Below are positions 35,791-58,655 of a stretch of DNA of 64,000 nucleotides, one piece after another; position 1 is the first letter of the stretch, and every line of letters starts with the position of its first letter. The DNA comes from Heterostelium pallidum (taxonomy: Eukaryota). Made by a program: the position numbers and the translations under genes. A model generated the notes under the pieces. The model was not told the origin of the DNA and made no database searches. It saw only the letters and a program-made list of their open reading frames with translations. The stretch lies in the NCBI RefSeq assembly GCF_000004825.1, contig NW_008805086.1, forward strand, positions 965,410-1,029,409. Reading direction: 5' to 3'.

Positions 35791-38700
35791 ATGACAAAAA
35801 AAGTTACCATTTCAGAATAGGGTGATCGTATTCACTTTTATAATCACAATTTTCACTATATTATCATCTATATACTTTATCAATGGAGGTATCGGTTTGA
35901 ATGGAAATGGCGTTGAATCAAACAACAATAATCAAAATGTCGAGGAAACTGCAAAGGATCTAATGGGTAGAAATTTAAATCAATTGCATCCATCGCTGAG
36001 GCTTCAGTTGGATGAGGAGGATCAGACTTTTCAACAGCTAGAGAATTTCAAACTCACTGGAAAAGACGAGCAACTTCAGTGGTCGACCGCTACATTTCAA
36101 AGGAAGCGTCGTGTTCTAATTGTCACCACTGAGATCGAGGGACCTGTACTCGGTGGAGGCATCGGAACTGCCTACACTGCATTGTCGCAACGACTCGCCG
36201 ACGATGGACACATCGTAACAGTGTTGGTAATCAACTACATCAAAAAGATGACTGCCACACACTGGCAGGAGTTGTATGCCACCAAGAAAATCACTATCGA
36301 ATTCCTCTCACCAGAGACTACCGACATCCTTGGATGCACCGGGCCATGCATTCGCAGTTACCACGCCTACAAATGGATTGCCGAGCGTGAGCATCTCTAC
36401 GATGTTCTTCACTTCCACGACAACGGTGGTATCGCCTATTTCTCTGCGTTGGCACGTAGCCAAGGAATTTCATTGCAAAAGTCAATCGTTGTCGTCGGTG
36501 GACATGGACCACATCTCTGGGAGAGAACTGCAAACTCTGCGAATCTCGACGACGGTAAACACTTTGAGGTAGATTACCTCGAGAAGCGTTCAGTGGAACT
36601 CTCCGACTGGCTGATATCGCCATCCAACTACATGCTAAACTGGATGCGTAGATCCGGTTGGGTTCTACCTAAAAACTCATATGTACACCAGAATCTTTTG
36701 CCAGGTACCATCATGTCGCAGCCAAGCGTCGATAAATTGATTGCACATTCATTCGATGAAATCATTTTCTTTGGTCGATTGGAGGCAAGAAAAGGACTCG
36801 ATATCTTCTTGAGAGCGTTGGATACACTACACAAGGAGTTGGACGAAGCCAATATCTTGGTTACATTTCTAGGTGCAAATACAAAGCTACCAGAGGTCAA
36901 TATGCTAGCGGATCAGTATATCGTTTCAAAGTGTCGTTTGTTGAATATGAATTGTCGGGTTTTGATTGGAAGAACTCATACCGAAGCAATCGCGTATCTC
37001 ACCGATCTATCGGATCGTAAGCTCGTCGTTATTCCATCGCCAATCGATAACTCACCCAACACAGTTTTGGAGTGTATGACACATAATCTAGCTTTCATTT
37101 CAACCAAAGTCGGTGGTATTCCAGAGTTGATCGATCCCAAAGATAGAGCACGTACTCTCTTTTCACCTGCACCAAACTCACTGATCCGAAAGATTCGTGA
37201 GTCCATCAGAGATGGTGTCTATCCAGCACGTATGGCCAAAGATGAATGGTTCAGACACAAGATTTGGAGCAATTGGCACTCCGTTGTACCAATACCTACA
37301 CAACAGCCACTCGTTACCAAACCCACCAATCTAGTGACTGTGGTACTCGTTCACAACGGCAACAACGACATTCAAGTGGAAACCAATCTAATGGCACTCG
37401 ACCAAAAGCAGAATCAATATCGTTTGGAGGTTGTAATTGCCACAGTTAGACCACTTCTCCAGATTCAAGAGTATCAATATATTAAAGTTAGTCAAGTCGA
37501 GATATCCGAATATCTCGTTTCACCAATCAATTTCCAGCCATGGAACAGTGAACCGATTGTCTCTTCATTCCATGGCGAATTCATTCTGTTTGTGGATCAA
37601 GAAGATTGGCTCAGCTCAAGGACACTCAATGAAATGTTGAATGTTGCCAAACATACCGGTGCACATATGGTATCGTCTTCGATTGGACATCCTGCCATGG
37701 GTGAAGATATCAGCTCTGTATATATGGGATGCATTGGAATGCCAGGAATGATGTACAACTGCTATGGTAGCAACAATGTACTGATGAACAAACTACTTTT
37801 ACATACAATCACTAAAAACTATACGAATGAAGAGATTGAAGATGAATTTGACTATGGTGGACCATGGGAGCTCTACTCTGAAGCAACCAACCGTGGATTC
37901 TCATTGGAAACCATTCCAAAAGCATTGTTTTTCACTTCAAGAACTGAAATCGATTTATCCAGTACTTATAATCAAGAATTAAGAGTTTTAAAATATTTCC
38001 AAGGTAAAAATTATTATTTAGCAAAACATTTATAAAAGCAATAGTTTATTAACTTTTATTGTTATCAACAGCATTATTACCACCATCTTTAGGTATTTCA
38101 CCACTTGCAACAAGACATTTCCTAATATCAAAGGGTTACTATTTAAATGAAATCAATACACAGACACAAAAAGTTAAACAATTGGAAGGACAAGTGGCGA
38201 AATATCAAATCATTGAAAAGAGAGAGGAACAATTTTTTGATTTGAATGAAACTTCATCTCAAGAGAGTTCCTGTGTCGTTTCAAACTACATGGAATCCAG
38301 AAAGCATATTGGAATGGTTTTCATTCGTGGTCACGAGAAATCAGGTACCTCATGGTTGAAAAAAGTAGTTGGTCTTCATCCAAGAATCCAGTTGCACCAA
38401 CAGGAATTCCACTTCCATATCGTCGAGGATGCCATTGAAAAATTTACAGATCATCCATGGGCTGCAAGTAACGAGCCTTATGTTTCTTACACCCGTAAGT
38501 GGTACAAATCATTCGTACGTAATCTTTTATTGGCTGGAGTATCACCACCATCGGCATCGATCATCAACTATGTCGGTGAGAAGACACCATCACCATTGGC
38601 ACCGATTATCTCTGGTTCCAAATATATTCTAATCATTAGAGATGGTAGAGATGTTGTTGTATCACTCTTTTGGCATTATGTCAGACTCGGTGGATTCGAG

Positions 38701-39222
38701 AACTGGTGTGGTGGCTTCTCAAAGCAACTGGTTGAGCCAGGCTATGTGAGATCCTACAACCAGGATACCAGTTATTTCAAGAAGAATCCAGAACATTTGT
38801 TGGAAAAAGAAGTCTGCTTCCGACATGTCGTTAGAAGCTGGGCAAAGAGAATCAGAGAGGATCTCCAAACCATCGATGACCTCAAGAAAAACCCAGCTGC
38901 TGAAGTCTATGTTTTGCGTTACGAAGAGCTACACCGTGATACTGATGCCATAAGAACAGAGATGTATCAATTCCTCGGACTAGATCCAGCAGAAGCACAA
39001 GAGCTATCGGTCGAAGGCAAAACAATTGCTGGTGGCTTCCAGGAGGAGGGCGAAAAGAAAAACAAATTCTTTAGAAAAGGAGAGATTGGTGATTGGCAGA
39101 ATTACTTTAGTTATGCAAACAAAGTTTGGTTCAAAGAAGAGGCTGGACATGAACTCATCCAACTTGGTTATGAACTAGATCATCTTTGGGTAAAGAATAC
39201 CAAACTATCTCCTATTAAATAA
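35791..39222 (+). CDS. Type II membrane protein fusing GT4 glycosyltransferase, GT2-like glycosyltransferase and PAPS-dependent sulfotransferase domains
   Basis: Two exons, ~35791/35822-38003 and 38072-39222, with a 68-nt phase-1 intron (CAA G|GTAAAA..ACAG). There is a TM anchor, IVFTFIITIFTILSSIYFI. GT4 motifs are RVLIVTTEIEGPVLGGGIGTA, GRLEARKGLD and STKVGGIPELI. GT2-like motifs are VTVVLVHNG and FILFVDQEDWL. Sulfotransferase motifs are GHEKSGTSWL (5'-PSB), IIRDGRDVVVS (3'-PB) and FRKGEIGDWQNYF. The ATG at 35791 is one base out of frame with the ORF (see findings). Confidence 0.8.
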
Positions 39223-39790
39223 AATTAAAAATAAATAGATTAAAAGTTTTAACCTATCATAGAGATAATAACATTACAATGAATAGATTAGTTTACAATT
39301 TTATTTCAAATTACTCAAATCTAGAGGTTTTCTTTGTAAATGAAGCCAATTCAGGAGACAACTTCTCAATAACCGGTGTTCCGTATGGATCTTCAATATT
39401 TGATTTTCAATTTATAGTAAGCTATCACTACAATTTTTTTTTATTCAAACGTATTGATGTGTTGTTAATCAAAGATAAACAATTTACTTTGTTATCTTCA
39501 AAGATGATAAGTTGTGGGCTCAATCCACCATTTATTTCCTTTTAAGAATTTCTACAAACAAAATTAATTGTGCATGAAGAAATTTCAAAAAAAAAAAAGC
39601 ATTCAACCAGATATTTTTGTAAACGAAAAGTATCAAGATTTTGTGCATAAGATGAAAAAATTAAAAAAATAAAAATTTAACAAAAATAAAAAAATAAAAT
39701 TAAAACTAAAGTTTTTGTAATTGTTCAACAACAAATCAATTGACTGATTGATTGATTTAATCAAAACCTTAAATAACTAAATACATAATA

Positions 39791-41050
39791 ATGGTAAATT
39801 TTATTGATAACACTAACGACTATCTAAAGAGTAATGAATGCTAACATTTCGAGAATAATTAAATCAAATAGGAAACAACTACAGTTGAAACTACAAAGGA
39901 TGGTGTTGTCGTTTTACAATATGAAGATCTTTTGAAAATGAAGGATTTGGGACAGTCAATCGAAACTGCCTTTGGATATAACGGTATTGGACTTTTAGTG
40001 GTTCGTGGCATTCCAAACATCACAGAGTTGCGTGACAAACTCTTGAACTTGGCACCACAATATACTGCATTGCCAGACGACATCAAAGAGAAAACCGTAC
40101 ACAAAAAGAGTAATTACTCATTCGGTTGGTCACACGGTAAAGAAATTCTTAAACCAGGTGTTTTTGGTAAGTTAAAAATCATCATTCCTTAATATTAAAA
40201 TAATCAATTATTTACTAATTGTTTGATTGATTGATTGATTATCATAATAATTTATTATATATGTATAGACGAATATAAAGGATCATATTATAATAATCCA
40301 CAATATGATACACCATTCTCTGATGCAAAGATGATTGAAGAGTTTCCAGAAAGTTGTCATCCAAATATTTGGCCAGTCCAAGATTTCCCACAGTTGCGTG
40401 ATGCTTTTATGGAGTTGGGACAAACCATCGTCAATGTTGGATCGCTCGTTGCTCAGCAATGCGATCTCTACGTACAATCAAAGAAACCAAACTACCAACC
40501 AAACACATTGAAGCGTATCATCGACGAGTCACTCACTTGCAAGGCACGTCTTCTCTATTATTTCCCAATCAATGAGGACCAGACCGAGCGCTCAAGAGAC
40601 AGTTGGTGCGGATGGCACAACGACCACTCCAGTTTGACTGGTTTGTGTCCAGCCATGTACTTCAAGGTCGACGAGAAGGGTAATGTCGTACTTGACAAGG
40701 ATATTCCATGCCCAGACGCAGCAGCTGGATTGTATGCACGTTCCAGAAACGACGAGGAGGTAAAGGTTATCATCCCAAAGGATTGCATCGCCTACCAAAT
40801 TGGAGAGTGCTCACAAGTTCAAACCGGTGGATTGCTCCGTGCCACTCCACACGCTGTCCAAGCCATCAAGTATCCAGAGAGTCAGCAAGTAGGTCGTTCG
40901 ACATTCGCTGTTTTCATGCAACCAAATGTGGATGTCGTATTAAACACTCCAGATGCCACCGATCAATGTTCGGTTGGACAATATCAACCTGGTATGACAT
41001 TCGCTGAATTCAGTAAAGTTACAATTGAGAATTATTATTCTGAAAAATAA
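39791..41050 (+). CDS. 2-oxoglutarate/Fe(II)-dependent oxygenase superfamily protein (isopenicillin-N-synthase-like)
   Basis: Three exons. Exon 1 is 39791-39793 (the ATG alone, followed at once by GTAAAT). Exon 2 is 39872-40166 and exon 3 is 40269-41050. The junctions are phase-consistent. The N-terminal block is VVVLQYEDLL..AFGYNGIGLLVVRGIP. The H-x-D motif lies in WCGWHNDHSSLTGL and the distal His in LLRATPHAV. Confidence 0.75.
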
Positions 41051-41456
41051 AATGAACTAAACATAAAGTTGATTCCATTTTATAATATATCTGTTTAATT
41101 GGGGTTAATTAATTTTTTAACAGTTTACATTTGCATTGTGTGAAAATTTATGAATTGCAAAAAAATTGATTAACACACACCAATATTGTGTTAATCCAAC
41201 TTTTTTTGGAGAATGATCTTTAACAAATTGTAGTATAATCCAATAGATTTTTGAAGAAATTAATAAATTAATCATATATTAAAAATTTATACAAAACAAA
41301 ATATAATTCATTTTTTTTAAGTACTTAAAAAAAAAAATATTATTTAGTTATATAGTTATATTACTTTTTATCTTTATAACTATCACAAATATATTATTAT
41401 AAATAATACTTACTTTATTATTTTATTTATATATAATAGTAAAAAAATTAAAAAAT

Positions 41457-42875
41457 ATGGAAGATGTATACAATATTGAGAAGAGAAAACAAATATTTGA
41501 AGTTTTATCAAATAATTTAGAAATAAGATATTTAAAGTATATATGGGTGGATCTATCAAATTTTATTCATGTAAAAGTTATTAGAACCAAGTATTTATTG
41601 GAGCACCAATGCAAATATTTTTCGTTTGGTACCAACTTTCTGTTTTTGAGATGCTTTGACAATCTTTCCAATGTTATAATTCCACCAGAGGACAAAGAAA
41701 CTTACTTTGTTCCAGATTGGAATACATTCCATGTGAATTCTTATCAAAAGGGAATTGCAAGTGTGTTTGGTTCGATCTATAGAATGAAGAAAGTAGTTTT
41801 AGGAAATGGAAATTCGTTCATACAGTGTGAACCATATGAACACTGTCCAAGAAATATTTTAAAAAAAGCAGAGAATACACTGTCGGAAATTCATATTGAT
41901 GGTGAAACTGGTATCAGCTTGAAAGGTTCATTTGAAGAAGAGTTCTATTTATTACCATTGGATACACCAATACCTGAAGAGGCTAATTCCGAATTAATAC
42001 CTGGATACAGTTTATACCATGTGGATGATCACATAGAGATCCTAATTGATATGGCCAAACACTTGGAGGATCAAGGTGTGCCGAATGAACAGATTCTGCA
42101 TGAGGGTGCACCAAACCAATTTGAAATAACAGTGCCTTACACATCGATCATGGAAGCATGTGATCGTCATATCATTGTGAGAAGTACAGTTCATGCTATT
42201 GCCAAGAAACATGGATATCAAGCCACTTTTATTCCTAAACCATTTAAAAACGACCTTGGAACTGGTTGCCATGTTCATCTTTCTCTGTGGAACAAAGACA
42301 AGAATTTAGTACCAAATCTAACTCATTCAACTAATTTATCAAACATTGCAAGACGTGCGATCAGTGGTATATTGCATCATGCTAGAGGTCTAACTGCTAT
42401 TTTCAATGCGTCTGTAAACTCATATCAACGTTTGAAGCCTATGACCTGGTCTGGAGGTGCCATTTGCTGGGGTGTCAATAATAAGGAATCGATGATTCGT
42501 GTTCCACACAGTGCATACACATTCAGTAACTTTGAATTGAAATCATTGGATCATAGTGCCAATGTGTATGTGGCAATGGCAGCCACTATATATGCAATGG
42601 TTGATGGAATGATTAGTGATAGTATAAAGATGCTTCCTCCAATTACCAAATACCCGTGCCAATATACTGACAGTGAAAGAGATAACCTAGGAATAAGACA
42701 GTTTCCTAAAACTCTTGGAGAAGCAATCAAAGAACTTGGCTCAGATACCTTTTTGATCAAAATGATGGGTTCCGAATTTATAGAGACCTTTTGTGCTATC
42801 AGACAATTCGAACAAGATTTTCTTAAAGGCAAGAGTGATTATGAAATTATTAAACTCTATTACAAACTGTATTAA
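41457..42875 (+). CDS. Type-I glutamine synthetase-like ATP-dependent amide ligase, tandem copy 1
   Basis: An intronless 472-aa ORF. Motifs are GSFEEEFYLL, EGAPNQFEITVPY, ATFIPKPF..GTGCHVHLSLW, NSYQRLKP and WG..NKESMIRVP. Confidence 0.9.
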   Translation: MEDVYNIEKRKQIFEVLSNNLEIRYLKYIWVDLSNFIHVKVIRTKYLLEHQCKYFSFGTNFLFLRCFDNLSNVIIPPEDKETYFVPDWNTFHVNSYQKGIASVFGSIYRMKKVVLGNGNSFIQCEPYEHCPRNILKKAENTLSEIHIDGETGISLKGSFEEEFYLLPLDTPIPEEANSELIPGYSLYHVDDHIEILIDMAKHLEDQGVPNEQILHEGAPNQFEITVPYTSIMEACDRHIIVRSTVHAIAKKHGYQATFIPKPFKNDLGTGCHVHLSLWNKDKNLVPNLTHSTNLSNIARRAISGILHHARGLTAIFNASVNSYQRLKPMTWSGGAICWGVNNKESMIRVPHSAYTFSNFELKSLDHSANVYVAMAATIYAMVDGMISDSIKMLPPITKYPCQYTDSERDNLGIRQFPKTLGEAIKELGSDTFLIKMMGSEFIETFCAIRQFEQDFLKGKSDYEIIKLYYKLY

Positions 42876-43302
42876 TAATAATAAAGGTAGATTTCTTGGT
42901 TCTAGAAAGAAAAAATAATTTTAAAAAAAAAATTTTTCATCAACAATTTTTTAAAAAAAAAAGGAATCATTATTTGAAAAGATGTTACTTTGTGTATTCA
43001 TAAATCTGAGACAAAAAAATTGGTGAAAAAGATCACTTTTCAGTTTTTTTTTTCTTGAACCAATCATAAATTAAATGGGCAGTTGAACAAAAATGAAAAT
43101 ATTTGTTTGTGTTTAGTTGTAAATTGGCATTGGTTGAAAAGATCCGGGAACCATGTTTTATTATTATAATCTATCTATTCGAGGTTTCTGCTTATTGTTC
43201 GTAAAGTTGAACAAAAGGTGTACCACAGACATATAAATAAGAAAATCAATCTACAACAATTTTAAATTACATAACTTTTTTAAATCAGTGTTTATTCAAC
43301 AA

Positions 43303-44724
43303 ATGGAAGAATTGAATAATGAAAAAAGAAAACAAATATTTGAATATTTATCAATACACACAGAAATTAGATATCTAAAATATATTTGGATTGATCTTTC
43401 CAATGTTATACACTCGAGAATCATCAGAACAAAATATTTGCTAGAAGAACGATGCCAGCACTTCCCTATTCTCATTACCTTCCTTTATTGGCGATGCTTC
43501 GACGGAAGAATAAGTCCAGCGGTTGATTATAAACTCGAAGAATCTGAAGCTTACTTTTTGCCAGATTGGGGAACATTCCAATTGGTTTCATATCAAGCAG
43601 AGACTGCACAGGTTTTTGGGTACATTTATCAAATTAAGAGAGTGGCTCAGCCTGATGGTGCTTTCAAGACTCACTATGATGCCGTGGATTGTTGTCCTAG
43701 AACCATGCTGAAGAATGCAGAGAAAATACTTTCGGAGATCCATATCGATGGTGCAACTGGTATCAGCTTGAAAGGTTCCTTCGAAGAAGAATTCTATCTA
43801 CTTCCTTTTGGTACGTCATTGCCTGAAGATTCTAGTTATGAATACAGACCATGCTTTAGCCTTTATCATACAGATGAATACTTTGAGATTCTAACTGACA
43901 TTGAGAAACACTTGGAGGCTCAGGGTGTGCCAAATGAACAGATTATGACCGAAGGTGGACCAAACCAATTTGAAATAACAGTGCCTTACACATCGATCAT
44001 GGAAGCATGTGATCGTCATATTATCATCAGAAGTACAGTTCATGCAATTTCCAAGAAACATGGATATCAAGCCACTTTTATTCCCAAACCTTACAAGAGT
44101 TACCCTGGAACTGGTTGTCATGTTCACCTTTCTCTGTGGAACAGAACCAATAATTTAGTTCCAAATCTCAGTCATCCAAATGGTCTGTCAAACATTGCAA
44201 GACGTGCGATCAGTGGTATATTGCATCATGCCAGTGGTCTGGCTGCTATTTTCAATCCAAATGTAAACTCATATCAACGTTTGAAACCATTGACTATTTC
44301 AGGTAATTTTATATGCTGGGGTATCGGTAATAAGGAAGCGATGATTCGAGTTCCACCATGTTCTTATACATTCAGTAACTTTGAATTGAAATCAATGGAT
44401 CATAGTGCCAACCCGTATTTGGCATTAGCTGCAACTATCTATGCAATGGTCGATGGAATGATTAGTGATAATATTAGGATACTTCCCAACATTCCAACAT
44501 TTCCAACACTCTACACCGAAATAGAAAAAGAGGAACTGGGCATTAGAGAAAATCCTAGATCTCTTGACGAAGCAATCAAAGAACTTAGATCAGATACCTT
44601 TTTGATCAACATGATGGGTTCTGAATTTATCAAGAACTTTTGTGCTATTAGACAGTTCGAACAAGATTTTCTTAGTGGCAAAACTAATCATGAAACCGCC
44701 AAACTCTATTACAAATTGTATTAA
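43303..44724 (+). CDS. Type-I glutamine synthetase-like ligase, tandem copy 2
   Basis: Intronless and collinear with copy 1, with the same motif set. I took the start at the first ATG (MEELNNEKRKQIF); the ORF track begins at an upstream GTG. Confidence 0.9.
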   Translation: MEELNNEKRKQIFEYLSIHTEIRYLKYIWIDLSNVIHSRIIRTKYLLEERCQHFPILITFLYWRCFDGRISPAVDYKLEESEAYFLPDWGTFQLVSYQAETAQVFGYIYQIKRVAQPDGAFKTHYDAVDCCPRTMLKNAEKILSEIHIDGATGISLKGSFEEEFYLLPFGTSLPEDSSYEYRPCFSLYHTDEYFEILTDIEKHLEAQGVPNEQIMTEGGPNQFEITVPYTSIMEACDRHIIIRSTVHAISKKHGYQATFIPKPYKSYPGTGCHVHLSLWNRTNNLVPNLSHPNGLSNIARRAISGILHHASGLAAIFNPNVNSYQRLKPLTISGNFICWGIGNKEAMIRVPPCSYTFSNFELKSMDHSANPYLALAATIYAMVDGMISDNIRILPNIPTFPTLYTEIEKEELGIRENPRSLDEAIKELRSDTFLINMMGSEFIKNFCAIRQFEQDFLSGKTNHETAKLYYKLY

Positions 44725-45523
44725 TAATGATATGTATGATAGATTTTTCTCTTCACAAATTTATTAATGATTCGGTTTTACAAACATTAGTGATCGAAAT
44801 AAACGAGTGATGATTTCAATTTTATAAAATCAAACACCACCCACACGATATTTATTTTTAGTATAATGCAGACGTCTCTTAATCTCATATTCTTTAAACT
44901 ATTAAAAAAGTATCGAAAAATAATAAATCACTTGCAAAACTAGCGATTAATTGAATCGTGAATCAAATAAAATTTAATTTTGATTGAATTTGTCTATTTT
45001 TGTCAAAAAAAAAAACATTTTGAAAGTAGAACAAAACCATTAACATCCAACAAAGCCTAAAATCAGAAAATTATTGGGTTAAATATAATTAAAATGTGTA
45101 TTTAATCATTGTTTTTGTTACTAATATTTAAACACACAAAAAATTAATTAAATTCTTTTTTTTATGATTAAATTTTAAAATTACATTAAATTTGGGGGGG
45201 GGCTGTATCAACAAATCACAAAATAGACCTCCCCTGTTCTTTCAAATCTTCGATAAATCTAACTACCATTCATTATATATATATCACAACTTTTTAAGAT
45301 CAATATTAATAATTAATTAAAATTAAAAAAAAATTGGTACTTCTTTTGTTAAATAAAATTACTTTAATTAATATTATCATATAAAGGTATTAGATATAAC
45401 AGTTATTTGTTAAATTATTACTTTTTTATTTGTACTTAAATCAAAACAAACTTTCTTTACATTCAATCAAAATCAAAGAATCAACCAATTGTTTTTCTAG
45501 ATTTTTTTTAAAAATAAATAATT

Positions 45524-47008
45524 ATGGATGAAATTCGAAACGAAGAAAAAAAGAAACAAGTTTTTAGCTTTCTTTCAAAACATAGTGAAATTAGATTTCT
45601 TCGTGTTTTGTGGGTGGACCTGTGCAATTTAATCAGATGTAAATCAGTTCGTACCAAATGGCTTCTTGAGAATGACTTTAACTATGTATGTGTTACCAAT
45701 GCTTGTATGTCGGTGCGAGTATTCGATGATGTCATCATTGAAGAAGCTGCACCATCCACTCAGTTTGGAGAAGTCTTTTTGGTGCCAGATTGGAGCACAT
45801 TCCATGTCAACTCTTATTCAGGTGGTACAGCCTCTGTGTTTGGTGCTTTCTATACCTCTGCTCAGGATTCCACTTTGCCAACAACCAAAACTCAAGGATC
45901 ATCTTCACAAGCAACCGAGCATGCTAACAGCTCAATGATCACAAAGAATAAATTGAGTCCATGGCCATACTGTCCTAGACAAACACTATACAGAGTTCAA
46001 AAGATGTTGGCGGATATCAATGTCGGTGGGATCCAGGGACTTGAAGTTAAAGGTTCGTTCGAAGAGGAGTTCTATTTGTTATCGAAAAGCAATCCCCTCG
46101 AGCCTTTTGATCCATATTCATTTGCAAGTGTGATATCACTAAATCAATACCAAACAATACTTGACGAAATTGCACAGAACCTCGAACTACAGGGTGTTCC
46201 CGTAGAACAAATGCTTGCCGAGTCTGGACCAGCCCAATTTGAAATGACCATTCCTTACACCTCTATCATGGAGGCATGCGATCGTCACATCATCTTCCGT
46301 CAAACCGTACACGCCATCGCCGATAAGTTTGGACTGCAAGCATCATTCCTCCCCAAAGTCCATCTGAATCGTGCTGGTAGTGGTTGTCACGTGCATCTCT
46401 CACTCTGGCAAGCCGGAAACAATCTTGTTCCCGATGCATCCGACATTGACACTGGAATTTCAGTGCTAGCCAAGCGCGCCATTGCAGGTATTCTCACTCA
46501 TGCCAAGGCAATGACGCCCATACTCAATGCTAATTTGAACTCATATCATCGTCTCCAACCAAATTGTTGGTCTGGAAACACAATTACCTGGGGACTGGAC
46601 AACAAAGAGGCAATGGTTCGTATTCCTTCGTCTGCTAGCAAGTCGACCAAGGGAATCACCAACTTTGAAGTGAAAACACTCGATCACACTGCCAATCCAT
46701 ATATGGCGATCGCAGCGATCATCTGTGCTATGGCAGATGGATTAATCAGTGAGACTATTACAATGACACCACCTACCTCTGTCAACCCATCGTCTCTAAC
46801 ACAGGAACAACGTGAAGCACTCAGAATCGATCAGTTGCCAACATCACTTGAAAATGCATTAAAAGCACTCAAATCAGATGATTATCTTCTCAATATGATT
46901 GGTAGCAAGATATGCACTTCATACATTGCACACCGTCAACACGAAATAACACTTTTAAAAGATTGCTCTCATAGAGATATAATTGAAAGATATTATAAAC
47001 TATTTTAA
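45524..47008 (+). CDS. Type-I glutamine synthetase-like ligase, tandem copy 3 (more divergent, with an S/T-rich insertion)
   Basis: An intronless 494-aa ORF. Motifs are GSFEEEFYLL, SGPAQFEMTIPY, GSGCHVHLSLW, NSYHRLQP and WGLDNKEAMVRIP. There is an extra AQDSTLPTTKTQGSSSQATEHANSS segment in the N-terminal domain. Confidence 0.9.
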   Translation: MDEIRNEEKKKQVFSFLSKHSEIRFLRVLWVDLCNLIRCKSVRTKWLLENDFNYVCVTNACMSVRVFDDVIIEEAAPSTQFGEVFLVPDWSTFHVNSYSGGTASVFGAFYTSAQDSTLPTTKTQGSSSQATEHANSSMITKNKLSPWPYCPRQTLYRVQKMLADINVGGIQGLEVKGSFEEEFYLLSKSNPLEPFDPYSFASVISLNQYQTILDEIAQNLELQGVPVEQMLAESGPAQFEMTIPYTSIMEACDRHIIFRQTVHAIADKFGLQASFLPKVHLNRAGSGCHVHLSLWQAGNNLVPDASDIDTGISVLAKRAIAGILTHAKAMTPILNANLNSYHRLQPNCWSGNTITWGLDNKEAMVRIPSSASKSTKGITNFEVKTLDHTANPYMAIAAIICAMADGLISETITMTPPTSVNPSSLTQEQREALRIDQLPTSLENALKALKSDDYLLNMIGSKICTSYIAHRQHEITLLKDCSHRDIIERYYKLF

Positions 47009-47642: not shown

Positions 47643-47876
47643 ATGAGTATAGAAATGACTATTACAAACGATACCAAGTTTTCAGAGTTCCTCACATACA
47701 CCAAGAACAACTTCAACAAGAAGGGATTGTGCGGTGTCTATGATTGGTATCACTCAAAGTACATCAAGACCGGTAGATTCGCTCCAATCATTCACTGTAT
47801 GGTTGGTGTTACCCTTTTTTCATATGTTATTAGACATCAAAGAATCGAACACCACAAGACTGCCCCATATCACTAA
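47643..47876 (+). CDS. Probable mitochondrial F1Fo ATP synthase subunit f
   Basis: A 77-aa ORF. Its C-terminal half, YDWYHSKYIKTGRFAPIIHCMVGVTLFSYVIRHQRIEHHKTAPYH, parallels animal subunit f (..YYNKYINVKKGS..LFSY..YKHLKHERLRKYH) as I remember it. Confidence 0.65.
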   Translation: MSIEMTITNDTKFSEFLTYTKNNFNKKGLCGVYDWYHSKYIKTGRFAPIIHCMVGVTLFSYVIRHQRIEHHKTAPYH

Positions 47877-48249: not shown

Positions 48250-48849
48250 ATGGATACAGATACTAATCATTTAAATGTTAAAAGAGATATTCTAGAAAGA
48301 GATAGAGTACTTAGAAATTATTTTGTATTGGTGGATTGGAAATCGGATGACGCTTTATTTCGTTTGAAAAGAAGATTGGTTACTGGCGAGCCAATTCACC
48401 CCCATGAATACTATCAATATTTGTATGAAGATAGTTGGTCTGGTTCAATCAACAACGGATTAAATGATAGTCTTGTATTCACAGATGGCCAGGAGAGATT
48501 CCTTATCCTGTTGGTTCACACAAACGATTCAAAGAAAATCATTGGTTCTCAGAAATACAAGATGATTGATAGAATCGGTAAATGGGTAGACAAAACACCT
48601 TCTAAATTAATCGATGTTGGTGTTATTACATCATCTTCCAACCAATACAAGGCAATAGGCCATTTAAAATTAGAAAGTACCAACATTAATGATGTCGACA
48701 TGTCCAATATCGAAGTAGATATTGACATTGAAAGACAAACCATCAACAATTATGTTTGGTACGGTAATGCCCCATCTGACTATCTACTTTATTGCGATGA
48801 TCACAAAGTGGAAGAGGTTACAGAGATTATTTCAGATTTGGAAATTTGA
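48250..48849 (+). CDS. Hypothetical protein (199 aa), no domain recognised
   Basis: An uninterrupted ORF with coding-like composition, flanked by AT-rich DNA and starting at an ATG in an A-rich context. I recognised no motif. Confidence 0.5.
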   Translation: MDTDTNHLNVKRDILERDRVLRNYFVLVDWKSDDALFRLKRRLVTGEPIHPHEYYQYLYEDSWSGSINNGLNDSLVFTDGQERFLILLVHTNDSKKIIGSQKYKMIDRIGKWVDKTPSKLIDVGVITSSSNQYKAIGHLKLESTNINDVDMSNIEVDIDIERQTINNYVWYGNAPSDYLLYCDDHKVEEVTEIISDLEI

Positions 48850-48973: not shown

Positions 48974-50297
48974 TTAGTTTTGTGATTTATAATTCTTTAA
49001 GAAATAAAATCCATTTTTATCTTGTTCGAAATAAACTGGTTTCCAAACTTCACCTTTTTGTTTTCTTTCTGCGGTAATCTTACGTTGTGCTTCCTCTACT
49101 TTGGTCTTCTCTTTGGTGATTGTCTTGGCAGATGTTCCACTGTCCAACTTGTCTGCCTCGAACACACCTTTCCATACGATGCTAGAGTCGGTTGGAAGGA
49201 GTACCTCTGGACCTCTCATTGCACCTTGTTTCATGGTTCGTCTGTCCCAGAGTATCTTGTAGTCGTCCTTCTTGTATTCTGAGATCTTGGCAATCTCATC
49301 CCATTGTCCTTTGATCTTGAAGATTTTGTCTTTTCCATTGTATATGGTTGTATCAAATGTATTGTATGATCCATACAGCAATGGCTTTGGATGGAATACT
49401 GATTTGCATTTGAGTGATGAGGTGTTTACTGTAAGCTTTGACTTTCCAACGTACTCACTGAAACTTCTAAAGATTCGAACAGCCATGCTCGGACAGGTAC
49501 CAGTGTAGACTTCGTTGTACTTATCGAAACGAATTCGAACGGTTCCTTCGAAGGACAGCTTGGCGTATGTACCCATGAAGGTTGATTTAACTTGGTCGTG
49601 GTAGCTAACATAGATTCCAGCCTCCTTGTTGTAGACAGTGGAACAAGAGATGGGTGGGTGATGGGAAATCTGCTCACAGAAGAACGTACAAGAGTTACTT
49701 GCTCCTTTGCTGTCTGGTGAGTCATCGTCAATATCATCCTCTCCACTCGTCTTGTTGTTATTGTCCGACTGTTGTTCATGTTCAAAAATGATGTCACCTT
49801 CGTAAGTCTCTGAAAGCACTGGATTTAATGGTTTACGCATATTGTCTTCAGGTAACCGACATGCTGTAAATAAATATTTTACAACTTGAATGAATCTTTC
49901 TTGTTTATCTTCTATTTCATTTGCCCTATTGTTAGTGTGTTCAAATAAAATATTGTGATTAGGAATTGGATGATTAGGCAAATAAACATGTGTTTTTCTC
50001 AACATACTTTAAAAGGATATCGAAATAAGATGAATAATATTCGGCGAAATAACTTAGAGCTGATTTAGGTAGGATGAAAGCACCTGGTACTGTCATAGAG
50101 GTAAGGTCAGCTCCAAAACCAATTTTTTTGATGACACTGGTCAACACTGTAAATCTGGATTGATTTTCCATTTGGTCATCAATCTCATCTATATTCAAAG
50201 CATTCTCGGTCTTTGGTGTTGTCAATTCTTTTTTCAATTCCTCTGGTATATCCTCTCCGACATCCTCGACTTCAACTTTTTTACTTTTTTTCCCCAT
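48974..50297 (-). CDS. Oxysterol-binding protein (short OSBP/ORP type)
   Basis: Two exons, 50008-50297 and 48974-49925, with an 82-nt phase-2 intron (GTATGT..ATAG). The OSBP fingerprint is EQISHHPPIS, together with KPLNPVLSETYEG. Confidence 0.9.

Positions 50298-51508: not shown

Positions 51509-58655
<7,147 letters not shown>

Follow-up and report, generated by a model that had tools for sequence, protein, structure and literature searches.

The analysed window, a 64,000-nucleotide stretch of a Heterostelium contig, contains at positions 39791-47008 of its + strand a 2OG/Fe(II) oxygenase gene followed by three glutamine synthetase (GS)-like genes, GS1, GS2 and GS3, all co-oriented (Table 1). 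This four-gene arrangement, described in an earlier note on this DNA, is confirmed by the open reading frames (ORFs) and their Pfam matches, and corresponds in Heterostelium album/Polysphondylium pallidum PN500 to PPL_04549 (oxygenase) and PPL_04550-52 (GS-like). A search for expression records of PPL_04549-04552 returned none. The intronless structure applies to the three GS-like genes, each an uninterrupted + strand ORF, and does not extend to the oxygenase, which has two introns between exons at 39791-39793 (the ATG alone), 39872-40166 and 40269-41050. The mechanical ORF of GS2 begins at a GTG at 43288, giving 478 aa (43288-44724). Upstream, glycosyltransferase and sulfotransferase ORFs can be joined in frame through a 68-nt GT..AG intron (38004-38071), in agreement with the fusion proposed in the note. 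The remaining flanking genes are of housekeeping types unrelated to the oxygenase/GS-like set.

Table 1. Genes of the oxygenase/GS-like locus, with positions in the window.
Feature	Position	Strand	Remarks
2OG/Fe(II) oxygenase gene (PPL_04549)	39791..41050	+	splice model from sequence, checked in frame
GS1, fast-evolving GS-like gamma-glutamyl ligase paralogue (putative)	41457..42875	+	472 aa, intronless
GS2, fast-evolving paralogue	43303..44724	+	473 aa from ATG 43303, intronless
GS3, conservative copy	45524..47008	+	494 aa, intronless
Gene X, small conserved neighbour	47643..47876	+	77 aa, one predicted TM helix

The oxygenase product (359 aa) is 100% identical, over the full query, to P0121/PPL_04549 of H. 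album PN500. The iron triad H216-x-D218...H294 and the 2OG anchor R309-x-T311 are invariant among 12 oxygenase homologues, and PDB entry 9hdl, a 'clavaminate synthase-like protein', matches it with E = 1.6e-54. These features identify a predicted isopenicillin-N-synthase-like 2OG/Fe(II) oxygenase, with a DIOX_N score (26.7 bits) marginally under the 27.3 cut-off. The oxygenase is much better conserved than the GS-like ligase and much more widely distributed, with 75-79% identity across Dictyostelia vs 40-51%, relatives in many eukaryotes and a Myxococcus homologue that is 59% identical. No GS-like gene was found beside the bacterial oxygenase homologues, the Myxococcus locus being checked within 8 kb.

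GS1-3 belong to the glutamine synthetase superfamily and share its type I (GSI) fold. The Pfam Gln-synt_C domain (PF00120) is matched with E = 2.7e-83, 7.2e-79 and 2.3e-84 in GS1, GS2 and GS3, respectively, and the AlphaFold2 model of GS3 (pLDDT 90.3) predicts the full two-domain GSI fold, superimposing on GSI and GmaS structures with TM 0.76-0.91 over ~490 aligned columns. With residues numbered as in S. typhimurium GS, the metal, ATP and glutamate ligands are identical in all three proteins (E129, E131, E212, E220, H269 and E357; H271, S273 and R344; G265 and R321), so that the intact ATP/glutamate motifs seen in the earlier reading are present in 3/3 copies. R339 and R359 have each given way to K, a conservative change.

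The site that binds and deprotonates ammonium in true GS comprises D50, S53, Y179 and the flap residue E327 (PMC5403932), and none of GS1-3 carries this D50/S53/Y179/E327 set of bona fide GlnA. The flap E327 is W in GS1 and GS3 and I in GS2; Y179 is G, C and F, and S53 is I, Y and P, in GS1, GS2 and GS3, respectively; N264 is A/L/P among the three copies. At the D50 column, where alignment of the N-terminal loop is uncertain, GS1 has N, GS2 has A and GS3 has E, an acidic residue (E or D) being found there in most orthologues as well. The flap W of GS1 and GS3 recurs in 12/12 dictyostelid orthologues and in four bacterial relatives, and the GS3 pocket is the clade consensus E/F/W; flap-W, 179-F and R359K together form the signature of a dictyostelid and cyanobacterial clade. 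The adenylylation tyrosine (Tyr397) is absent from GS1-3, and the NCBIfam GlnA model (TIGR00653) scores them at 212-226 bits, below its cut-off of 429.15.

By their residues, GS1-3 resemble PauA7 (PA5508) of P. aeruginosa and GlnA3 of S. coelicolor, verified gamma-glutamyl-mono/polyamine synthetases with a flap Trp for E327, D50 -> G and Y179 -> A (PMC5403932). The GSI fold, the metal/ATP/Glu ligands, the flap Trp (in GS1 and GS3) and the loss of the Tyr179 hydroxyl are common to both groups, as would be the predicted reaction of glutamate, ATP and an organic amine. The two differ at D50 (G vs E/D in GS3 and most orthologues), at position 179 (A vs F in GS3 and G/C in GS1/GS2) and, for GS2, at the flap (Trp vs Ile), and the host here is a eukaryote in which the genes have no polyamine-catabolic context. 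A lost D50 combined with a small residue at 179 fits GS1 (N, G) and GS2 (A, C), whereas GS3 has E and F, with the uncertainty of the D50-loop alignment applying to all.

The top NCBIfam model for GS1-3 is GGputSyn (NF045547), that of PuuA, the E. coli gamma-glutamylputrescine synthetase, in which the flap Glu is Y and Tyr179 is Q. Their 240-286 bits fall short of its cut-off of 650, however, and they differ from PuuA in overall sequence (24-29% identity), in K for R359 and in having no puuB/C/D-like partners nearby. Among the 18 ORFs surveyed at 26.8-61.9 kb, which take in the cluster and the flanks to either side, none encodes a Puu-type gamma-glutamyl hydrolase, oxidase or aldehyde dehydrogenase. 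With classical GSI (GlnA of E. coli, Salmonella and B. subtilis) they share the fold and catalytic core, but at 26-27% identity and with replacements in the ammonium pocket (E327, Y179, N264, S53) and at the adenylylation site. Prokaryote-type GSI domains also occur in the eukaryotic proteins FluG (Aspergillus), NodGS (Arabidopsis) and CsTSI (tea theanine synthetase), for which non-glutamine gamma-glutamyl products acting in development or signalling have been proposed (PMC9909507). Compared by described architecture, these carry an N-terminal nodulin/amidohydrolase domain (PMC9909507), whereas GS1-3 are stand-alone proteins of 472-494 aa with GS domains only. In Bremerella, a bacterial relative of the dictyostelid clade, an overlapping Amidohydro_2 gene reproduces the domain combination of FluG as a split pair.

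Neighbour-joining (distance) analysis recovered the dictyostelid clade with 97% bootstrap support and GS1+GS2 with 100%; monophyly of all three copies received only 77%, in a distance tree containing a long branch. That branch leads to GS1/GS2, while GS3 sits on a short one. GS3 is the conservative orthologue, 50-51% identical to those of Acytostelium and Cavenderia, and GS1 and GS2 (68-70% identical to each other) are lineage-specific duplicates; a search of 5.8 billion proteins returned no GS1 homologue above 41% identity. A GS3 orthologue is present in every dictyostelid examined, including the cAMP-using group 4, and nearly always as a single copy. Outside dictyostelids, 'GS family' proteins of cyanobacteria and planctomycetes are the nearest relatives. 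GS1/GS2 are under purifying selection (dN/dS 0.26 at an unsaturated dS of 0.81) despite fast evolution of the acceptor pocket: 22/96 clade-conserved columns are altered in GS1 and 21/96 in GS2, against 3-13 in other orthologues; among the altered sites are position 179, the flap position and N-terminal-domain loops. Their GC3 is also below that of GS3.

Linkage between the oxygenase and a GS-like gene is seen by DNA evidence in three genomes, directly upstream in H. album and within 2-5 kb in T. lacteum and P. violaceum; gene numbering adds two further EukProt species (6576/6577 and 7971/7973). Orientation and spacing are different in each linked species, and the linkage is lost, with both genes kept, in A. 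subglobosum, C. fasciculata, D. discoideum and probably D. purpureum. Gene X, weakly ATP-synthase-subunit-f-like (weak Pfam matches to F1F0-ATPsyn_F and WRW, E ~0.005), served as a synteny control outside any pathway. Matches by tblastx/tblastn place it immediately 3' of the GS gene in T. lacteum (L003 13234-13452) and D. discoideum (L005 12126-12332), and it adjoins the GS gene about as often as the oxygenase does; neutral microsynteny therefore suffices to account for the oxygenase-GS linkage. What appears as a C-terminal 'extension' in the EukProt model P0002 is itself gene X sequence.

Taken together, we consider it probable that the locus represents a lineage-specific expansion of a GSI-fold gamma-glutamyl-amine ligase, rather than of an ammonia-assimilating glutamine synthetase. 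Since the ammonia-binding residues have been lost, the acceptor is most likely another amine, to which the GS-like enzyme would attach glutamate. By analogy with the family, two metal ions and ATP would convert the gamma-carboxylate of L-glutamate to an acyl-phosphate, which an organic amine, in place of ammonia, would then attack. This amine would sit in a remodelled pocket, more hydrophobic or roomier than that of true GS, with polyamines or other small mono-/diamines as the default guess. A GS3-type gene was probably inherited vertically from the dictyostelid ancestor, and tandem duplication within the Heterostelium lineage probably gave rise to GS1 and GS2. In this pair the acceptor-pocket residues appear to have shifted fast while purifying selection held the catalytic core, a combination that would indicate new or narrowed amine specificities. 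The upstream oxygenase is probably an ancestral chromosomal neighbour, possibly with a functional tie to the ligases. The placement of these paralogues outside primary nitrogen assimilation, suggested in the earlier note, accords with the replaced ammonium site, the sub-cut-off GlnA scores and the likeness to PauA7/GlnA3.

That same note had cautioned that the genes might simply be glutamine synthetases, joining glutamate to ammonia. In dictyostelids ammonia acts as a developmental signal, and an expansion of such enzymes for its detoxification during development would agree with the database name of the orthologues ('glutamate-ammonia ligase'), with the complete GSI fold and every catalytic metal, ATP and Glu ligand, and with the acidic residue at the uncertainly aligned D50 position of GS3. 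The replacement of E327 by W or I, the changes at Y179, N264 and S53 and GlnA scores so far under 429 bits nonetheless make an ammonia-assimilating role, judged from the sequences, very unlikely, and equal substitutions mark non-GS ligases (PMC5403932). The long branches of GS1/GS2, their numerous changes at otherwise conserved positions and their lower GC3 could instead reflect redundant duplicates drifting to loss, or a lengsin-like non-catalytic role, but intact ORFs, the retention of all catalytic ligands and a dN/dS of 0.26 at unsaturated dS leave this most improbable. The oxygenase might further be a tailoring enzyme, as first proposed, and act in a conserved two-step pathway: the ligase would add a gamma-glutamyl group to an amine, and the oxygenase would hydroxylate or desaturate the substrate or product, yielding a dictyostelid-wide metabolite. 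Both are small-molecule enzymes, PuuA-PuuB and IpuC-IpuD are precedents for a 'glutamylate, then oxidise' logic, and in T. lacteum, P. violaceum and H. album the oxygenase stays near the GS-like gene while all other neighbours differ, the EukProt gene numbers agreeing. Such a pathway is doubtful, given the separation of the two genes in three, probably four, species that retain both, the species-specific orientation and spacing, the unequal conservation and wide distribution of the oxygenase, which in Myxococcus has no GS-like gene within 8 kb, and the about equal retention of the unrelated gene X.

A link to glorin had also been raised, with one or more copies forming its gamma-glutamyl-ornithine (or ornithine-delta-lactam) bond. 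GS-like enzymes activate the glutamate gamma-carboxylate, so the chemistry fits, and since they require free alpha-groups, ligation to ornithine or its lactam could come first. The host species is glorin-responsive, and its candidate non-ammonia acceptor pocket would be larger at position 179 in GS1/GS2 (G/C). Glorin biosynthesis is still unknown (PMC5331329), and the GSI-like fungal FluG, required for an extracellular developmental signal, provides a precedent (PMC9909507). Against this, the conserved orthologue is retained by group 4 species, which do not respond to glorin, and GS1/GS2 are limited to one lineage while glorin is used across groups 1-3 and in P. violaceum. Copy number does not track glorin use: the only other tandem duplication is in the neopterin user T. 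lacteum (two copies), whereas the glorin users P. violaceum and C. fasciculata have one each, and the group 2 species A. subglobosum also has one. The glorin structure calls for no oxygenation and so leaves the oxygenase without a role, and no propionyl acyltransferase, esterifying or lactam-forming gene was found nearby among the same 18 ORFs (26.8-61.9 kb). A gamma-glutamyl dipeptide could just as plausibly come from gamma-glutamyl transpeptidase or from enzymes of the glutamate-cysteine-ligase type. Nothing in these comparisons supports the glorin link, which we regard as highly improbable. There is a slim chance, only slightly greater, that the GS3-type enzyme or GS1/GS2 make secreted gamma-glutamyl signals in the broader sense, be it the glorin bond or another acrasin-like compound comparable to that of fungal FluG. 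If true, the ancestral aggregation signal of dictyostelids would gain its first biosynthetic enzyme.

Non-ammonia GS-like amine ligases are well known in bacteria. The products of eukaryotic GS-like ligases are almost all unidentified, with theanine as the sole assigned product (PMC9909507). Our analysis suggests that every dictyostelid examined carries a stand-alone, candidate non-ammonia GS-like ligase, for which 'glutamate-ammonia ligase' would on this reading be a mislabel, and that one lineage has tripled the gene and remodelled its acceptor pocket. As CRISPR works in the host species (PMC12929561) and synthetic glorin is available (PMC5331329), even the speculative glorin link would be cheap to test, though the evidence disfavours it. 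GS1, GS2 and GS3 thus offer a three-gene shortlist, and a sound experimental candidate, for a new gamma-glutamyl metabolite in social amoebae.

The run of four co-oriented plus-strand genes that the earlier note described at 39791-47008 stands, except that the first of them, encoding a 2OG/Fe(II) oxygenase, carries two introns. The three glutamine synthetase (GS)-like genes that follow, GS1, GS2 and GS3, each match Pfam Gln-synt_C (E about 1e-80), and the spacers between the four genes are AT-rich and 0.4-0.8 kb long. The spliced oxygenase product is 100% identical to PPL_04549 of Heterostelium album (Polysphondylium pallidum) PN500, and the OSBP gene further downstream is PPL_04553, so PPL_04550-04552 are evidently GS1, GS2 and GS3. 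Because this numbering leaves no number for gene X, a small ORF downstream of GS3, that ORF is probably unannotated in the PPL set. The GS1, GS2 and GS3 proteins were absent from a collection of 5.8 billion proteins and from a gene-position index, where the adjacent PPL_04549 of the same genome is present, and an exact-sequence look-up of GS3 in a protein database returned no record; their absence from the collection could be an annotation or database gap. Annotated PPL_04549 is 404 aa long, with an upstream exon (MNRLVYNF...) taken from an ORF at 39279 (39279-39545). The N-terminus probably reaches too far upstream in this model, since the oxygenase orthologues are all 357-363 aa, which fits a start at ATG 39791 with an intron directly after it.

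Features of the GS-like locus and its surroundings (positions in the window)
Feature	Position	Strand	Description
GT-sulfotransferase	35822-39222	+	GT4/GT1 ORF and sulfotransferase ORF, joinable in frame
2OG/Fe(II) oxygenase	exons 39791-39793, 39872-40166, 40269-41050	+	359 aa
GS1	41457-42875	+	uninterrupted ORF
GS2	43303-44724	+	uninterrupted ORF
GS3	45524-47008	+	uninterrupted ORF
Gene X	47643-47876	+	77-aa ORF, one hydrophobic helix, weakly like mitochondrial ATP synthase subunit f
ORF without Pfam match	48250-48849	+	199 aa, between gene X and OSBP gene; possibly coding
OSBP gene	48974-50005		osbA orthologue
PARP ORF, then VIT/VWA ORF	51849-58655	+	PARP catalytic/regulatory; second ORF 1769 aa

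The wider neighbourhood, scanned from 26.8 to 61.9 kb, also holds ORC3, a CBM49 protein, D123, a PfkB kinase, NOP9 and a zinc-knuckle protein, besides the GT-sulfotransferase fusion, OSBP and PARP/VIT/VWA genes. The fusion, already proposed to lie directly upstream of the cluster, gains from a 68-nt GT..AG intron at 38004-38071 that joins its two ORFs in frame, which supports a single predicted gene of roughly 1100 aa. The second ORF of the PARP pair contains VIT, VWA and an internal 14-3-3-like domain and directly follows the PARP catalytic/regulatory ORF; the pair recalls the architecture of a vault-PARP (PARP4), with the 14-3-3 insertion as an unusual addition.

To characterize the ligases, GS1-3 were aligned with E. 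coli GlnA, PuuA, twelve dictyostelid homologues and four bacterial relatives (S. typhimurium GS numbering). The intact ATP and glutamate motifs reported earlier are borne out: all three copies keep the ligands of the two-metal centre (E129, E131, E212, E220, H269, E357), the ATP site (H271, S273, R344) and the glutamate site (G265, R321), with R339 and R359 replaced by Lys. The ammonium pocket is replaced in all of them. In the order GS1, GS2, GS3, the catalytic flap residue Glu327 is replaced by Trp, Ile and Trp, Tyr179 by Gly, Cys and Phe, and Asn264 by Leu, Pro and Ala. Ser53 is lost throughout, and the adenylylation residue Tyr397 is also absent. The best NCBIfam model for the three proteins is gamma-glutamylputrescine synthetase, at 240-286 bits against an equivalog cut-off of 650, and their GlnA scores of 212-226 bits also lie below the cut-off of 429. 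An AlphaFold2 model of GS3 (pLDDT 90.3, pTM 0.91) shows a complete two-domain GSI fold, and Foldseek aligned it with GSI structures and gamma-glutamylmethylamide synthetase (GmaS) in the PDB at TM 0.76-0.91, a comparison that supports the fold only, as GSI-alpha and GmaS score alike and true GS and GS-like ligases are inseparable by it.

In function, GS1-3 come closest to PauA7, GlnA3 and PuuA, which are GS-like gamma-glutamyl-amine ligases of bacteria. In PauA7 and GlnA3, biochemically verified gamma-glutamyl-mono/polyamine synthetases, the changes E327 to Trp, D50 to Gly and Y179 to Ala open room for bulky amines (PMC5403932), and GS1-3 match this signature in part. GS1-3 have the GSI fold and catalytic core, but given their replaced ammonium pocket and sub-threshold GlnA scores, the suggestion that these genes may simply be glutamine synthetases is unlikely to hold; our literature search on D. 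discoideum glnA1/glnA2 found no relevant report. From their residues we infer that GS1-3 are ATP-dependent gamma-glutamyl-amine ligases. The closest eukaryotic systems are the GSI-like proteins FluG, NodGS and CsTSI, which are tied to development and whose products are mostly unidentified (PMC9909507), although this group is defined by an N-terminal amidohydrolase domain, which is missing from the dictyostelid proteins. In Bremerella volcania (L010, 8001-10459), the gene of a GS-like relative shares 64 nt with an Amidohydro_2 gene downstream of it. FluG and NodGS carry this domain pair as a fusion, a hint at a possible relationship between the dictyostelid/bacterial GS-like clade and the FluG-type GSI domain.

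The closest relatives of GS3 in database searches are dictyostelid proteins (40-51% identity), one each in A. subglobosum, C. fasciculata, P. violaceum, D. purpureum, D. discoideum and two EukProt dictyostelids, with a pair in T. lacteum. Cyanobacterial and planctomycete 'glutamine synthetase family' proteins come next (36-40%), and the flap-Trp/179-Phe signature is common to GS3 and both sets of relatives. A bootstrapped neighbour-joining tree of 433 columns supports the dictyostelid clade at 97%, GS1+GS2 at 100% and GS1+GS2+GS3 at 77%, the latter nested among group 1/2 species; GS3 has a short branch, GS1/GS2 a long one, and the T. lacteum pair is a separate tandem duplication (100%). Searching with GS1 gave nothing above 41% identity, the matches being the GS3 orthologues again. 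Because of this placement, these branch lengths and the lack of a closer GS1 match, GS3 is taken as the conservative orthologue, and GS1 and GS2 as duplicates specific to the Heterostelium lineage. No similarity was detectable among the three upstream regions, which thus give no sign of a duplicated promoter or recent gene conversion.

At 96 nearly invariant columns, GS1 deviates from the clade consensus in 22, GS2 in 21 and GS3 in 7, compared with 3-13 in the other dictyostelid orthologues. The changes in GS1 and GS2 fall at position 179 and its neighbour, in the flap (GS2), beside the E212/E220 strand and in N-terminal-domain loops, which in GSI enzymes close the active site of the neighbouring subunit. 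This is the pattern expected of acceptor-pocket remodelling around a preserved catalytic core. Pseudogenisation of GS1 and GS2 was rejected in view of intact ORFs, intact ligands and a dN/dS of 0.26 between them, at dS 0.81.

The oxygenase has the invariant triad H216-x-D218...H294 and R309-x-T311, and one clear solved homologue, the 'clavaminate synthase-like protein' 9hdl/9hdm (E = 1.6e-54), for which a literature search on function yielded unrelated papers only. An initial reading that no oxygenase lies beside the GS orthologues was rejected, as it reflected missing Pfam labels; tblastn and gene numbering show linkage. In T. lacteum the oxygenase orthologue is downstream of the GS pair, at a distance of 2 kb and on the opposite strand; in P. 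violaceum it is again downstream, here 4.7 kb from the GS gene, on the same strand and separated from it by one gene. For two EukProt species, the gene numbers 6576/6577 and 7971/7973 imply that the pair is linked as well. By tblastx, these T. lacteum and P. violaceum loci otherwise share only gene X with the window. Since the oxygenase-GS linkage is kept across species while all else but gene X differs, it is ancestral and has outlasted extensive rearrangement. A soluble guanylate-cyclase-like gene (Guanylate_cyc + AAA_16), absent from the window, lies about 1-9 kb from the GS-like gene in C. fasciculata (L002, 639-8945) and P. violaceum (L004, 20778-21515), and is a second fragment of ancestral synteny.

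That the oxygenase and the ligases form a real pathway, as proposed in the earlier note, we consider unlikely. A. subglobosum, C. fasciculata and D. discoideum have lost the linkage, and in D. purpureum the two genes are on different contigs, yet all four species keep both. The oxygenase is far more conserved and far more widely distributed than the ligase: its identity is 75-79% across Dictyostelia, 59% with Myxococcus and 45-58% with many other eukaryotes. The two families are not neighbours in Myxococcus, Fischerella or Bremerella. Gene X serves as an internal control: in T. lacteum and D. discoideum it still directly follows the GS-like gene (and EukProt model P0002 mistakenly joins it to the GS-like protein), so neutral microsynteny persists at this locus. 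A full-text literature search found no record of PPL_04549-04552 expression, and two comparative transcriptome papers listed only PPL_04553 of this stretch. There is no current evidence for the locus as a true gene cluster. The Myxococcus stipitatus oxygenase homologue (L008, 8001-9092) matches over its full length and ranks above most eukaryotic homologues in identity, which suggests that the gene either is under very strong constraint or has been transferred between myxobacteria and Amoebozoa.

No biosynthetic route to glorin is known (PMC5331329), and its gamma-glutamyl-ornithine bond is in principle within reach of GS-type chemistry. That one of these enzymes makes it is nevertheless highly improbable, as the proposed comparison of GS copy number with signal does not support the link. 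Group 4 species, none of them glorin-responsive, have a GS orthologue; T. lacteum, which is attracted by neopterin, shows the sole other expansion; and a single copy is present in each of the glorin users P. violaceum and C. fasciculata (D. fasciculatum), and also in A. subglobosum, a group 2 species not counted here among the glorin users. Moreover, GS1 and GS2 occur in a single lineage, whereas glorin use is regarded as ancestral, glorin has no oxygenated position needing a 2OG oxygenase, and no acyl-transfer or esterification gene was found among the scanned ORFs. A glorin pathway at this locus has no current evidence, and the idea is attractive only because genome editing in P. pallidum makes it cheap to test (PMC12929561). 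The tandem expansion at this locus is real and lineage-specific, and the enzymes belong to a kind that is recognisable though uncharacterised; metabolite discovery in social amoebae could reasonably start from them.
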